A DNA stretch of 64,000 nt from Eledone cirrhosa (taxonomy: Eukaryota). Below the pieces are notes generated by a model. That model was not told where the DNA came from and searched no databases. It saw only the letters and a list, made by a program, of their open reading frames with translations. The translations under genes and the position numbers were made by a program. The stretch covers positions 64,914,001 through 64,978,000 of the forward strand of contig OZ024744.1 in assembly GCA_964016885.1 (NCBI GenBank). The letters are read 5' to 3'. Positions 3,433 through 40,785 of the stretch are shown here, one piece after another. Position 1 is the stretch's first letter. The number at the start of each line of letters is the position of its first letter.

Positions 3433-3491
3433 GCTGCAATATATATTTCGGTGATAACCATAATTCAATAGTTATGACCTCATCAGGCAGC
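3433..3491 (-). ncRNA. Type I hammerhead ribozyme motif (HH1)
   Basis: Minus strand reads GCTGC-CTGATGA-GGTCATAACT/ATTGAATTAT/GGTTATCACC-GAAA-TATATA-TT-GCAGC: stem I GCTGC/GCAGC, 10-bp stem II with one mismatch, palindromic stem III, AUU triplet. Confidence 0.8.
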
Positions 3492-3591
3492 TAGAACTTG
3501 AACAGAAAAAAACAGGGAAATATAATGGTAAAATATATATTTTATTTGAATTTGGCAAAGCCGGCCATTTATTGCTCGTATACAGGAAACT

Positions 3592-3702
3592 GACTGACCA
3601 GTCTGCTGATATGCAAATCTGGCTGATCAGTGGATCTGCTAATATGCAGATCTGACTGATCAGCCAGTCTACTAATATGCAAATCAGACCAATCAGTCAC
3701 TG
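3592..3702. repeat. 33-bp tandem repeat, about 3 copies, with ATGCAAAT/ATGCAGAT and CCAAT motifs
   Basis: Units CTGCTGATATGCAAATCTGGCTGATCAGTGGAT, CTGCTAATATGCAGATCTGACTGATCAGCCAGT and CTACTAATATGCAAATCAGACCAATCAGTCACT. Confidence 0.85.
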
Positions 3703-3745
3703 TATATTTTAGAAAATAGCATATATTTTCACTAGCTCTGACAGT

Positions 3746-3825
3746 TTGGCAGGTGAACAGTGAGCTGTACTGATGAAGGGTGATACCCAGAAACATTAGT
3801 GTCTGCCATTCTGTTCGCATGCCAA
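3746..3825 (+). ncRNA. Type I hammerhead ribozyme motif with extended stem I (HH2)
   Basis: TTGGCAGGTGAACAG-tgagct-GTA-CTGATGA-AGGGT/GAT/ACCCA-GAAA-CATTAGTG-TC-TGC-catt-CTGTTCGCATGCCAA. Core at 3770-3776 and 3790-3793, GUC triplet 3801-3803, distal stem I 14 of 15 paired. Confidence 0.8.
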
Positions 3826-3956
3826 CACAAGAGCAAGAATGAAGGGTTCATTCTACTGACATGGCTATACAATTGAGGCTTGTTTGCAAAATTGCAAATG
3901 AATCGAATGTTATTATTAATATTCGAAAAACTCAGATTACATTTATTGTATTCAGC

Positions 3957-4301
3957 CATCATCATCATCATCATTTCATTTTACGTCCACTTTTCCCTGC
4001 TTGCAAGGGTGGGACGGGAACTGATTCTGGCTTGATTTCTACAGCTGGATGCCCTTCCTAACACCAACCTCATTTACAGTGAGTGCTGGGTACTTTTTTG
4101 CCATGGCACCTCCATGACCACTTTGCAGTGAAATGATAGGGACCCCAGTCCCTCTCATCTCATTTCTACAGCTGAGTAAACTGGAGCAATGTGAAATAAA
4201 GTGTCTTGCTCAAGGAAACAACACATCACCCGGTCTGAGAATTGAATTCACAACCTTTCGATTGCAAGGCCAATGCTCTAACCACTAAGCCATGTGCCTC
4301 C
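3957..4301 (-). mobile_element. Full-length tRNA-headed SINE (family 1) with RTE-derived 3' tail
   Basis: A/B boxes, CCTTGAGCAAGACACTTTATTTCAC (V-domain-like) core, TTAGGAAGGGCATCCAGCTGTAGAAA tail and (TGA)n end. Confidence 0.85.
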
Positions 4302-4423
4302 ACATGTAGAGCGAAATTTTCTTTTATATATATATATATATGTTTGTGTGTGATCATATAAACTGGGAAATTGTATTTTGATAAATTCATGGTTTGCTTA
4401 AGGCTTAACAAACATGGTGGCAA

Positions 4424-4730
4424 TTGTTGTTGTTGTTGTTGTTGTTGTTGTTGTTGTTGTTGTTGTTGTTGTTGTTGTTGTTGTTGTTCTTCTTCTTCTT
4501 CTTCTTCTTCTTCTTCTTCTTCTTCTTCTTCTCATTCACCCACTTATTTCTGCAAGGGTCATGGAGATGAGTCCTCAAGCACTCATTCCAGCAAGTCCTG
4601 TCAAAATTAACCATTTCCCAAACAAGATCAGCTGAGCTCATAGATGCTATCCAACCATCTTGTAAAATCTGACCAGTGATTCTTTTCTGAGACATTCTAA
4701 CCTTATGCCCATAGTATCGGAGTTGTGATC
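4424..4730 (-). mobile_element. Old RTE 3' fragment with (AAG)n/(AAC)n compound microsatellite
   Basis: LRYYGH..RM translation (RTE C-terminal LRWYGH motif); (GTT)n(CTT)n at 4424-4532. Confidence 0.5.
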
Positions 4731-4737
4731 TCACAAT

Positions 4738-4921
4738 TCATACATACATGCATACATGCATACATACATGCATACATACATACATTCATGCATACATACA
4801 TGCATACATACATACATAGGGAAAAAATTTGTGAAATTATAAAACCAGAAGAACATATACATACATACATACATGCATACATACATACATGCATACATAC
4901 ATATATACATACATACGTACA
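4738..4921. repeat. (CATA/CATG)n microsatellite
   Basis: Direct reading. Confidence 0.95.
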
Positions 4922-5229
4922 TGGTGGCTGCCAACTCGTTTTCGAGTACGGCCACTACTTTATATCCATGTAGGAGAACCCCTACCGATGCGCTGAACGA
5001 GTGTGACTTTTTAGTCCAGCCAGCGACTTGAAAACTCTGGCACAAACACTACACTTGTGACAATTATTGACACATAGTGATGGGCCCATGGTACCATGTG
5101 ACGACAAATGCAGAGAGATCTCCAGATATAAAGCAATGCCTGTGCCGTGAAGCTTTTATAGTGAGCAAAGGAACTGCACAAAGCCAGTCCCACTCTCTTA
5201 ACTAAGATGATATTTACCAAAAAGAAGAA

Positions 5230-5492
5230 CAAGTCAACATCATTGGATACCATCAGGGTTGCAGGTGTTATATCAGAGTTTTCCTTCTCCTGGTGATTTT
5301 GGATGGCCATTGACTCTTTAGAGCTCCTTTGCCCTTTGACAGGTTTTGTTTTTAGTCCTGCAGGATGTCCAAAGTCACCCTCCTCACCAAGAAACCTTGG
5401 TGGGGTTGCCAGTTTAGTAGCCAACGACCCGACCATGAGACAGGTTGTACTGGGATACATGTTACCAGTAGCACCAACTGGTGACCTGACAT
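5230..5492 (-). mobile_element. Probable 5' UTR fragment of an RTE/BovB-type LINE
   Basis: Minus strand contains GGCAACCCCACC and CCAGGAGAAGGAAAACTCTGAT, motifs I associate with RTE 5' regions. No in-window copy to confirm. Confidence 0.35.
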
Positions 5493-38049: not shown

Positions 38050-38283
38050 TAATAATAATAATAATAATTGTTTCCGCAATAGGCACAAGGCCAGTAATTT
38101 GAAGGTGGGGTGGAAGTTGATTAAATCGACACCAGTGCGTGACTGGTACTTTATTTTATCGACCCCATAAGGATGAAAGGCAAAGCTAACCTTGACAGGA
38201 TTTGAACTCAGAACGTAAAGGGTCATAACTCTACGCCACAAAGCATGTTGAGTGATACTCTACCGATACTGCCAATTCACCGA
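38050..38283 (-). mobile_element. SINE family 2, full length
   Basis: Reverse complement of the 6905-type copy; (ATT)n tail. Confidence 0.85.
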
Positions 38284-38296
38284 ATAATATAAATAG

Positions 38297-38370
38297 TGAT
38301 TTCTTTATTAACCACAAAGGGTTTACATTGAGAAAAACATTATGATGGATGAAAACATAGAGCATGTGTA
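38297..38370 (-). mobile_element. 3' terminal fragment of a Tx1 relative
   Basis: TGATTTCTTTATTAACCACAAAGGGTTTACAT matches the Tx1 3' terminus at 31242-31272, then diverges. Confidence 0.7.
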
Positions 38371-38492
38371 TGAATGTGTGTGTATGAATGTGTGTGTGTG
38401 TGTGTGTGTGTGTGTGTGTGTGTGTGTGTGTGTGTGTGTGTGTGTGTGTTGGTGAGTAAGTTTTGCATGTAAACAAATAAAAATAATTAAGA

Positions 38493-38660
38493 TAATAATT
38501 GTTTCTACTTTTGACACAAAGCCAGCAATTATCCCAGTGCATCACTGGTACTTTATTTTATTGACCCCGTAAAGATGAAAGGCAAAGGCAAACTCAGACT
38601 GTAAAGGGCCGTAACTCTATGCTGCAAAGCATGGCGTCTGACCCTGTACCGATACTGTAA
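38493..38660 (-). mobile_element. SINE family 2, internally deleted
   Basis: Tail, core and partial head on the reverse strand. Confidence 0.8.
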
Positions 38661-38719
38661 TAATAAGTGGGAACAAAGTATCAGTTTAGCATCCTGTACA
38701 TATTTTATTCACCTGTATG

Positions 38720-39013
38720 TATATATATATATATATATATATATATATATATATATATATATATATATATATATATAAATATATATATATATATATATAT
38801 ATATATATATATATATATATATATATATATATATATATATATATATATATATATAAATATATATATATATATATATATATATATATATATATATATATAT
38901 ATATATATATATATATATATATATATATATATATATATATATATATATATATATATATATATATATATATATATATATATATATATATATATATATATAT
39001 ATATATATATATA
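38720..39013. repeat. (AT)n, about 290 bp
   Basis: Direct reading. Confidence 0.97.
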
Positions 39014-39890
39014 TCATCATCATCATCATCATCAACGTTTAACGTCCGTGTTCCACGCTTGCATGGGTTTGGACGGGGGTAGTCCCACTTGAGGCAAGAG
39101 TGATTGTCTTGCTCGCATAGGACTGTCTGGCAGGTTTTCTACAGTTGGATGCCCTTCCTAACACCAACCACATTTACAGTGTGGGTCTGGGAGGTTTTTA
39201 CCGTGTTGCCTACACGGCCACATTACAGCGTGGACTGTGTGTTTTTTTGTCGTGACACCTACACGATCTCATTTGTTTCGGCCTGGATGGCGCGGCACCA
39301 ACATAACTTTACATAGAACGGGGTGGTGTGGATGGGGTGGGGGTGGTGGCGGGACGGGGTGTATTTTGTTAGAGATGCCTACTGGCAAGGCGGGTCTTCT
39401 CTGTTACTGAGTACCGCCAAAGGTCACGGTCCAGTGACATTGTCTTGGAGAGGTGTAAGTGTGTGAGGTCGGAGTTTATCATATATATATATATATATAT
39501 ATATATATATATATATATATATATATGATAAACTCCGACCTCACACACTTACACCTCTCCAAGACAATGTCACTGGACCGTGACCTTTGGCGGTACTCAG
39601 TAACAGAGAAGACCCGCCTTGCCAGTAGGCATCTCTAACAAAATACACCCCGTCCCGCCACCACCCCCACCCCATCCACACCACCCCGTTCTATGTAAAG
39701 TTATGTTGGTGCCGCGCCATCCAGGCCGAAACAAATGAGATCGTGTAGGTGTCACGACAAAAAAACACACAGTCCACGCTGTAATGTGGCCGTGTAGGCA
39801 ACACGGTAAAAACCTCCCAGACCCACACTGTAAATGTGGTTGGTGTTAGGAAGGGCATCCAACTGTAGAAAACCTGCCAGACAGTCCTAT
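39014..39890. mobile_element. Fold-back pair of RTE 3' fragments (minus 39014-39480, plus 39527-39890) around (AT)n
   Basis: Arms 39117-39480 and 39527-39890 read as exact reverse complements. Confidence 0.92.
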
Positions 39891-40200
39891 ATATATATAT
39901 ATATATATATATATATATATATATATATATATATATATATATATATATATATATATATATATATATATATATATATATATATATATATATATATATATAT
40001 ATATATATATATATATATATATATATATATATATATATATATATATATATATATATATATATATATATATATATATATATATATATATATATATATATAT
40101 ATATATATATATATATATATATATATATATATATATATATATATATATATATATATATATATATATATATATATATATATATATATATATATATATATAT
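39889..40200. repeat. (AT)n, about 310 bp
   Basis: Direct reading. Confidence 0.97.
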
Positions 40201-40523
40201 GGAGGCACATGGCTTAGTGGTTAGGGCATTGGCCTTGCAATCGAAAGGTTGTGAGTTCAATTCTCAGACCGGGTGATGTGTTGTTTCCTTGAGCAAGACA
40301 CTTTATTTCACATTGCTCCAGTTTACTCAGCTGTAGAAATGAGATGATAGGGACTGGGGTCCTATCAGGTGCCACGGCAAAAAAGCACCCAGCACTCACT
40401 GTAAATGAGGTTGGTGTTAGGAAGGGCATCCAGCTGTAGAAATCAAGCCAACATCAGTTCCCGTCCCACCCTTGCAAGCAGGGAAAAGTGGACGTAAAAT
40501 GAAATGATGATGATGATGATGAT
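40200..40523 (+). mobile_element. Full-length SINE family 1 with RTE-derived tail
   Basis: TGGCTTAGTGG A box, GAGTTCAATTC B box, core, RTE-like tail, (GAT)n. Confidence 0.88.
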
Positions 40524-40744
40524 ATAAATATATATATATATATATAAGTATGTATACGTACATACATATATGTATACAGACGTACAGTAGTATGTATATA
40601 TATGTATATGTACGTATATATATGTACGTATGGATTCACCGAACATTTATTATAATGCTCGGTGTGTTTGTAAACAAACATCCCGTATTAAGCCGTAGTG
40701 TCCAGCAACCATCGTTGCTCGTTTGTTCAACACTGACAAAGGAA

Positions 40745-40785
40745 CGCTGTACTAGTTTCAAGCTTATTAGCTATCGTCAGCAATG
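40745..40785 (-). ncRNA. Minimal type I hammerhead motif (HH7)
   Basis: Minus strand reads CATTG-CTGACGA-TAGCT/AATA/AGCTT-GAAA-CTAG-TA-CAGCG: palindromic stem III ACTAGT, GUA triplet, stem I with one mismatch. Confidence 0.68.

Follow-up and report, generated by a model that had tools for sequence, protein, structure and literature searches.

We analysed a stretch of 64,000 nucleotides (nt) of the genome of Eledone cirrhosa (contig OZ024744.1, positions 64,914,001 to 64,978,000; hereafter, the window) that carries seven hammerhead ribozyme motifs in short islands. These motifs very probably belong to seven high-copy families of type I hammerheads: four of the families (a, c, d and g) would be the pseudo-long terminal repeat (pLTR) ends of truncated coding Penelope-like elements (PLEs), and two (b and f) lie in units without open reading frames (ORFs) that were likely copied by the same enzymes. 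The letters a to g name the islands of the window, and L-numbers denote genomic loci elsewhere in the genome. Copies of a, c, d and g elsewhere join ORFs for a reverse transcriptase (RT) and a GIY-YIG endonuclease; thus, the copies of these families in the window are best described as 5'-truncated autonomous elements.

Hammerhead motifs, covariation and copy number

A structural descriptor (core, stem II, GAAA, stem III, NUH, stem I) was run on bases 1-45,000 of the window, bases 45,090-64,000 being excluded from the motif count as a (GTT)n-rich satellite. Six sites were found with a stem I of at least 2 bp and five with a stem I of at least 3 bp. Dinucleotide shuffles (300 for each of two schemes) gave means of 0.06-0.07 and 0.03, respectively, with a maximum of 2, and the shuffled sequences contained as many bare CTGANGA words as the real sequence. 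An earlier reading of the letters alone (the sequence-only reading) had claimed seven motifs and suggested such a comparison; similar counts were not obtained by shuffling, and all seven motifs are in the sequence, six as intact type I hammerheads and one (18604, family g) in decayed form. In the latter copy GAAA has become AAAA, and many other copies of family g retain GAAA. Positions had been given in that reading as edges of stem I; we use the start of the CTGANGA core instead (Table 1).

The same reading described palindromic stems III, stems II that all differ in sequence yet pair, as an argument against chance, and islands mostly between (TA)n tracts. Chance is excluded and (TA)n targets hold for the families, but some details need correction. 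Stem III of the motif at 3770 (ACA-TTAG-TGT) is not palindromic, and stems III and I of that at 19131 are imperfect in this copy; the motifs at 13843 and 14226 have a common stem I and layout, so that their designs are not independent; and the island of 3770 ends in a repeat bordered by (CAT)n. A scan of the window against Rfam gave 108 matches at E <= 5, none of them to a hammerhead family. It should be noted that minimal PLE hammerhead variants were located by custom descriptors in published work as well (PMC4209133). Four of the seven monomer folds were no more stable than those of shuffled sequences (z -0.45 to -1.69), which is expected given the weak stems III; stems I and III of c and d consist of A and T only. 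On sequence grounds, the motifs are genuine type I hammerheads, for which self-cleavage at the NUH site is predicted.

Covariation was studied in the c/d group, using 11 of the 14 cluster representatives and a pattern that left stem II free; three damaged singletons were omitted. Both-sided changes were found in 6 of the 7 stem II pairs and in 8 of the 19 pairs overall, i.e., the compensatory changes that a hammerhead would be expected to show in its genomic copies are present in this group. Altogether, 95.7% of the cells were paired, a value reached in none of 500 shuffles, although kinship among the sequences inflates this control. The palindrome of stem III co-varies as well (TATATA, TGCGCA, TACGTA).

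Type I hammerheads of the PLE or retrozyme type, in several high-copy families, had been proposed for this genome, and each family has thousands of genomic candidates. First-look searches yielded 4,842 candidates for c and d together, 2,419 for a, 3,079 for b, 2,505 for f, 2,121 for e and 3,846 for g, of which 40 were scored for each query. In every family, the majority of copies are short and contain no ORF. We also sampled 1 Mb of the genome (100 stretches of 10 kb at fixed spacing, on 23 contigs) with a slightly relaxed descriptor. This sample contained 66 motifs with a stem I of at least 3 bp, in 37 of the 100 stretches, compared with a mean of 0.8 in 20 shuffles. Extrapolated to the assembly of 2,996 Mb, the bootstrap range of 43-93 motifs per Mb corresponds to 1.3-2.8 x 10^5 motifs (about 2 x 10^5). 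The high density noticed in the window is thus a property of the genome and not of the locality. We rejected the idea of a hotspot, the probability of at least five motifs in 45 kb at the sampled rate being P = 0.18. The random sample also shows many additional hammerhead families.

Reading frames, insertion geometry and copy ends

For family c, 11 places have an ORF start at +144..+304 relative to the predicted cleavage site, and at least 12 have an ORF end 1.0-1.7 kb before it; most of the c loci with such links had been picked by an RT query. One locus, L031, holds a whole decayed element, in which a partial c pLTR is followed by the RT-endonuclease ORF in pieces, a 1.2-kb 3' untranslated region (UTR) and a second c pLTR; an inverted c arm lies at its 5' side. 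For family g, the end of a different ORF precedes the cleavage site by 220-350 nt in 13 of 65 arms. For family a, represented by 51 arms, the end of a Hydra-type ORF lies upstream in two places (L327 and L237), with the C-terminus 1.0-1.2 kb upstream on the same strand. For family d, an ORF end lies upstream in 2 of 39 arms (L218 and L248), and the two ORF ends are mutually homologous.

The c-type protein follows Hydra-1_Obim motif by motif in a comparison by eye, with RW(R/C), DKT, CxCX5C and a terminal CxxC/CxH, and without CCHH. Hydra-1_Obim is an element of Octopus bimaculoides that inserts in (TA)n and is listed without a pLTR in the part of the supplement of Craig et al. 2021 (PMC8557442) covered here. 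The motif check was made on the c-type ORF; for family d, the CxH end alone was seen. A protein database search gave 38 full-length relatives with 30-46% identity, many of them with PF26215 and none named. In the family g ORF, an RT is accompanied by a CX4CxxC linker and by a GIY-YIG domain that has residues of the CCHH type. As judged by these motifs, families a, c and d are pLTRs of Hydra-clade or Hydra-type PLEs and g is the pLTR of a Neptune/Nematis-type PLE. Asparagine-rich stretches occur between RT and endonuclease in the Hydra-type ORFs of three loci (L317, L330 and L316), which recall the N-rich inserts of rotifer PLEs.

When the RT piece of L031 was used as a query, 24,386 candidates were found in the genome, and matches to Hydra-type ORFs cover about 2.8% of the 1-Mb sample. 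The sequence-only reading had described non-coding families with no autonomous partner in the window and had seen no Penelope RT or GIY-YIG ORF. Such an ORF is indeed absent from the window and from the 10 kb to its left, and b and f are ORF-less; however, the partner is abundant in the genome, and a search for linked RT/GIY-YIG ORFs, as that reading had recommended, finds them for a, c, d and g.

All seven families insert into (TA)n targets, and their 3' ends that abut TA repeats form two classes, short and tail, 45-100 nt apart. Counted from the cleavage site, with numbers of copies in brackets, the classes lie in the +50s (15) and +150s (3) in a, at +140-150s (25) and +170-190 (14) in b, in the +50s (11) and +130-140s (25) in c, in the +50s (16) and +130s (21) in d, in the +50-60s (12) and +130s (4) in e, at +210-230 (15) and +260-270 (20) in f, and in the +150s (11) and at +200-220 (14) in g. 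We found 74 head-to-head pairs of arms of the same family, which commonly combine a tail end with a short end; the standard layout of PLEs has inverted pLTRs and, optionally, a tail (PMC3846280, PMC8557442). At a distance of 14-22 nt beyond the short end, the motif WAGAGYR occurs in 35 of 41 copies of b, 43 of 47 of f, 33 of 65 of c, 16 of 22 of d and 6 of 13 of e, against a background of 1.5% of random 45-nt windows. Small hairpin folds can be drawn from the tail-motif region in c, d and a. A separate observation is an array of four head-to-tail copies of the d tail alone (+39..+134), with (TA)n between them (L338:410-876).

The 5' ends of the copies bear on the role of the ribozyme itself. 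If hammerhead cleavage set the 5' end of the reverse-transcribed RNA, the genome would record cleavage in vivo. Some arms do start just past the predicted site, i.e., at +2 (the d tail arm of the window), +4 (the whole element of L031) and 0 (both arms of L350), and 8 of 122 unselected arms start at +12..+25; none of the 122 starts at -16..+11, and some of the starts past the site are homology limits between subfamilies. Conversely, when 60 loci were selected solely by their tail sequence (48 used, 12 omitted as interrupted or not resolvable), only 7 of the 48 arms start at 0..+29, 3 of these at 0..+5, compared with 9 at -30..-1 and 28 upstream of the site. Among 30 ORF-joined c arms, 11 span the site and 2 start at most 12 nt past it. 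We consider it unlikely that the hammerhead sets these ends. Copy 5' ends were also tried, and rejected, as a cleavage record: a pile-up in loci found with the d island as a query came from the query itself and was not reproduced in the unselected and tail-selected samples.

A sharper boundary lies further upstream. Arms of d start at -121..-123 in 9 of 21 unselected cases with unrelated neighbours and at -122..-124 in 4 of 18 tail-selected cases; arms of c, short or ORF-joined, cluster at about -105..-132, the ORF-joined starts including -130, -132 and -106. The start near -123 is likely to mark the point where the RT ran off the beginning of a transcript initiated within the pLTR. Since the majority of arms extend across the cleavage site, uncleaved RNA is likely to be the main template for the minimal pLTR hammerheads. 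In vitro, the protein of an anole PLE has two internal RT starts, by which the tail is delimited, and uncleaved RNA is its main substrate (PMC11167929).

These results suggest the following model. The GIY-YIG endonuclease of a PLE would nick a (TA)n tract, and the RT would initiate downstream of the hammerhead, at one or the other of two internal sites, both immediately 5' of a small hairpin or motif. The two ends of the target would be extended independently, with the tail site as the start for one and the short site for the other, and the cDNAs would be joined 5'-to-5'. Most cDNAs would be short, and many would continue past the cleavage site and stop 105-130 nt further upstream, likely at the 5' end of the pLTR-initiated transcript, leaving ribozyme islands of 150-300 nt. 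The minimal palindromic hammerheads of the pLTRs are predicted to need a dimer, and their template would likely be uncleaved RNA; cleavage as a dimer was reportedly described by Lunse et al. in 2017. Families b and f are predicted to have their own transcription, to be cut to monomers and possibly circularised, and to be reverse-transcribed in trans by Hydra-type proteins.

ORF-less units and alternative explanations

The unit of family b closes on itself after 440 nt and has tandem copies at three loci (L069, L084 and L377); that of family f closes after 430 nt, with a range of 430-520 nt, and eight units of about 476 nt are found in L238. Both families occur mostly as dispersed insertions of 1-2 units. 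There is no PLE ORF within either unit, and no consistent ORF link was found in 45 arms of b and 70 arms of f, near which ORF matches vary in place and part. In the hammerheads of b and f, stem II is short and stem I continues beyond internal loops; Cervera and de la Pena assigned this canonical type to retrozymes (PMC7229834). An octamer, ATGCAAAT, precedes the cleavage site by about 120-130 nt in 22 of the 29 arms of b and in 42 of the 49 arms of f. Among the other families, c has it in 2 of 99 arms and d, at other positions, in 8 of 30, and none of the arms of a (43), e (35) or g (60) contains it. In the b arm of the window, it is borne by 33-nt repeats at 3598-3696. We take the octamer of b and f to be a putative promoter element of the small nuclear RNA (snRNA) type; the octamer of newt satellite-2 may be a parallel. 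Families b and f behave as ORF-less, retrozyme-like elements. No RNA run on record was found to contain the f stretch, and one run presumed to be RNA yielded no alignment; neither result speaks for or against expression. In the hammerheads of L272 and L326:2162, stem I resembles that of f and stem II that of b, which hints at a relationship between the two families. A further hammerhead family, in 310-nt tandem units with a stem III of CGCG (L028:2002-3280 and L217), is a retrozyme candidate.

Families b and f might instead be satellite-like repeats or short interspersed nuclear elements (SINEs) moved by the RTE, L1-Tx1 or R4 long interspersed nuclear elements (LINEs), rather than by PLEs. LINEs are abundant in the window, and the snRNA-type octamer would suit such repeats. 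However, both families share with PLEs the pair of fixed 3' ends, the (TA)n targets and the head-to-head arrangement of arms, they carry the Hydra tail motif, and no 3' end common with a LINE was seen, though such ends were not searched for systematically. Mobilisation by LINEs has, in our view, a low probability.

As a more specific proposal, which we put forward tentatively and at somewhat less than even confidence, retrozymes b and f would mimic the start signal of the Hydra clade, which would name their helper. Insertions would arise from two separately primed templates, so that a single insertion can have one arm from a PLE RNA and the other from a retrozyme RNA (3382-3959), and the resulting load, about 1 hammerhead per 15 kb, would be above the published figures compared. 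One of 75 head-to-head pairs joins two families, namely, the short arm of a and a tail-type arm of b at about 3533 in the window. The junction has a 5-nt overlap in AT-rich sequence, and no further piece of family a was found in the first 45 kb. It could reflect a two-template insertion, although this is a single case and coincidence is possible.

All seven families could also be independent, non-autonomous and non-coding ribozyme retroelements. This would agree with the short, ORF-free state of most copies, the ORF-less tandem units of b and f, and the absence of an ORF link for e; moreover, solo pLTR copies could be re-transcribed and re-inserted. However, in many places c and g continue into RT-GIY-YIG ORFs, which refutes the explanation for these two families, and a and d do so in two places each; as an account of all seven families, it is very improbable. 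Chance matches in AT-rich, microsatellite-rich DNA, to which the AT-only stems of c and d, the Rfam result and the four unremarkable folds might point, have next to no probability and are refuted, as to sequence, by the excess over shuffles in the window (6 versus 0.06) and in the 1-Mb sample (66 versus 0.8), and by the compensatory changes.

Several observations weigh against our preferred explanation, in which PLE pLTRs coexist with retrozymes copied by the same enzymes. Among 150 RT candidates that were scored, open frames reach at most 699 amino acids, so that no intact full-length ORF was seen among them. The ORF links of a and d amount to two places each, and no link was found for e in 36 arms or in five extra loci chosen by the tail-end pattern. 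Pfam gave nothing for the Hydra-type ORF pieces or for a frame of 689 amino acids; the family g ORF matches RVT_1 and GIY-YIG at E about 2e-4, both under the gathering cut-offs; and the clade calls (Hydra; Neptune/Nematis) are motif-based, not derived from a tree. WAGAGYR was defined after inspecting the sequences; it was found past the short end in none of 19 copies of a, a Hydra-type family, and none of 30 copies of g, and after the tail end of ORF-joined c copies it takes a looser form, with the strict form in 6 of 20. The start near -123 may reflect an RT pause or fold-back at a short palindrome instead of run-off. The tandem arrays of b and f could also have grown by unequal crossover.

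Window features and comparison with known systems

Table 1. Hammerhead-bearing arms and their inverted partners in the window. Extents are counted from the predicted cleavage site.
Feature	Positions	Strand	Extent	Core start	Remarks
Family a arm	3382..3535	-	-98..+56	3486	predicted cleavage after 3438; assigned to pLTR of Hydra-type PLE; short 3' end in (TA)n
Family b arm	3531..3959	+	-274..+158	3770	extended stem I 3746-3825; ORF-less 440-nt unit, retrozyme-like
Family c arm, tail-bearing	13772..14041	+	-119..+143	13843	predicted cleavage after 13890; assigned to pLTR of Hydra-clade PLE
Family d inverted arm, tail-bearing	14064..14195	-	+2..+134		
Family d short arm	14186..14332	+	-95..+51	14226	predicted cleavage after 14280; assigned to pLTR of Hydra-type PLE
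Family g arm, tail-bearing	18412..18678	-	-117..+220	18604	decayed hammerhead; assigned to pLTR of Neptune/Nematis-type PLE
Family g inverted short arm	18726..18805	+	+79..+158		
Family e arm	19118..19272	+	-93..+66	19131	61-nt stem II domain; tail resembles Hydra pLTR tails
Family f arm	40539..41096	-	-354..+220	40780	about 1.3 units of 430-nt ORF-less monomer; octamer about 120 nt upstream of cleavage site; retrozyme-like
Family f inverted tail arm	41098..41154	+	+214..+270		

Several other repeats are found in the window. Three young copies of a LINE with APE and RT, 95-99% identical and each broken, lie at 9954-13043(+), 22515-25147(+) and 25299-28676(-), two of them in inverted orientation; they are presumably RTE-like. 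An apparently near-intact element at 31506-37108(-), which we take to be L1-Tx1-like, has open frames of 715 and 1,195 amino acids, the second with endonuclease, RT and zf-RVT. Two 3' fragments with a restriction-like endonuclease end, at 30632-31108(+) and 37227-37970(+), lie within (TAA)n tracts and are presumably R4/Dong-like. A perfect 774-bp palindrome at 39117-39890, whose 387-nt arms are 100% complementary around a centre of (TA)23, consists of a LINE 3' end and a SINE-like repeat, and is either a very recent fold-back or an assembly artefact. The satellite at 45090-64000 (19 kb) is rich in (GTT)n/(GGT)n and almost free of C on the plus strand, with a 65-68-nt unit towards its end.

The kinds of elements described here (PLE pLTR hammerheads and non-LTR retrozymes) are already known, and no new class is opened. 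No paper devoted to octopus hammerheads was found in the literature covered, with subscription papers and preprint supplements outside this coverage, and the words 'ribozyme', 'hammerhead' and 'Hydra' are absent from the main text of an Octopus vulgaris repeat paper (PMC13282606).

The pLTR hammerheads of metazoan PLEs (Cervera and de la Pena 2014, PMC4209133) likewise have a long stem II, a short stem I and a palindromic stem III, with several families per genome; they too are mostly solo copies of truncated PLEs, with some opposite-strand pairs 100-700 bp apart. The difference is one of scale: 1.3-2.8 x 10^5 motifs here versus about 4,000 in coelacanth and 9,000 in Xenopus tropicalis, a rough comparison since the published counts rest on other descriptors. 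Other published counts are over 6,000 in one genome, 235 Rfam matches in giant squid, and 126,247 motifs in axolotl (PMC7229834), whose genome is roughly ten times larger than this one (10.64898/2026.07.22.740005). The estimate of 2 x 10^5 motifs in 3 Gb, with the same reservation, is higher than the axolotl count and relevant to repeat annotation, and the inverted arms are relevant to the formation of double-stranded RNA.

With the Hydra clade of C-terminal EN+ PLEs (PMC8557442), the Hydra-type elements described here have in common RW(R/C), DKT, the CxCX5C linker, CxxC and CxH around the end of the endonuclease, the lack of CCHH, the (TA)n target and a hammerhead near the 3' end. Families a, c and d differ in having other hammerheads, 3' UTRs of 0.7-1.2 kb, and tails of 85-100 nt rather than 30-40 nt. 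In the parts of that paper covered, the clade is a small number of families, in contrast to the share of the 1-Mb sample taken here by Hydra-type ORF matches. The family g ORF has the same RT, linker and CCHH-type GIY-YIG layout as Neptune/Nematis in that paper.

Metazoan non-LTR retrozymes (PMC7229834; Li, Clavereau and Pollet 2026, 10.64898/2026.07.22.740005) resemble b and f in forming tandem arrays without an ORF, whose units measure a few hundred nt and carry a type I hammerhead each, and in occurring alongside PLEs; the 2026 preprint derives them from PLEs. Unlike them, b and f occur mostly as insertions of 1-2 units, with full PLE geometry and a tail motif common with a named PLE clade. 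The Poseidon PLE of Anolis carolinensis (Frangieh et al. 2024, PMC11167929) likewise has two internal RT starts, an AT-rich target and uncleaved RNA; it belongs to another clade, and its properties were established in vitro, whereas ours are read from genomic ends. The copies analysed here form a large natural data set on the role of the hammerhead in PLE transposition, in which, in agreement with that one in vitro study, most copy ends appear not to be set by the hammerhead. Beyond these known systems, our data point to a tail motif at the same offset in retrozymes and Hydra-type elements, to 5' ends that are not piled up at the cleavage site, and to a candidate junction of PLE and retrozyme arms. 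This bears on the question of which enzyme moves animal retrozymes: the common tail motif and the identical geometry point to Hydra-clade PLEs.

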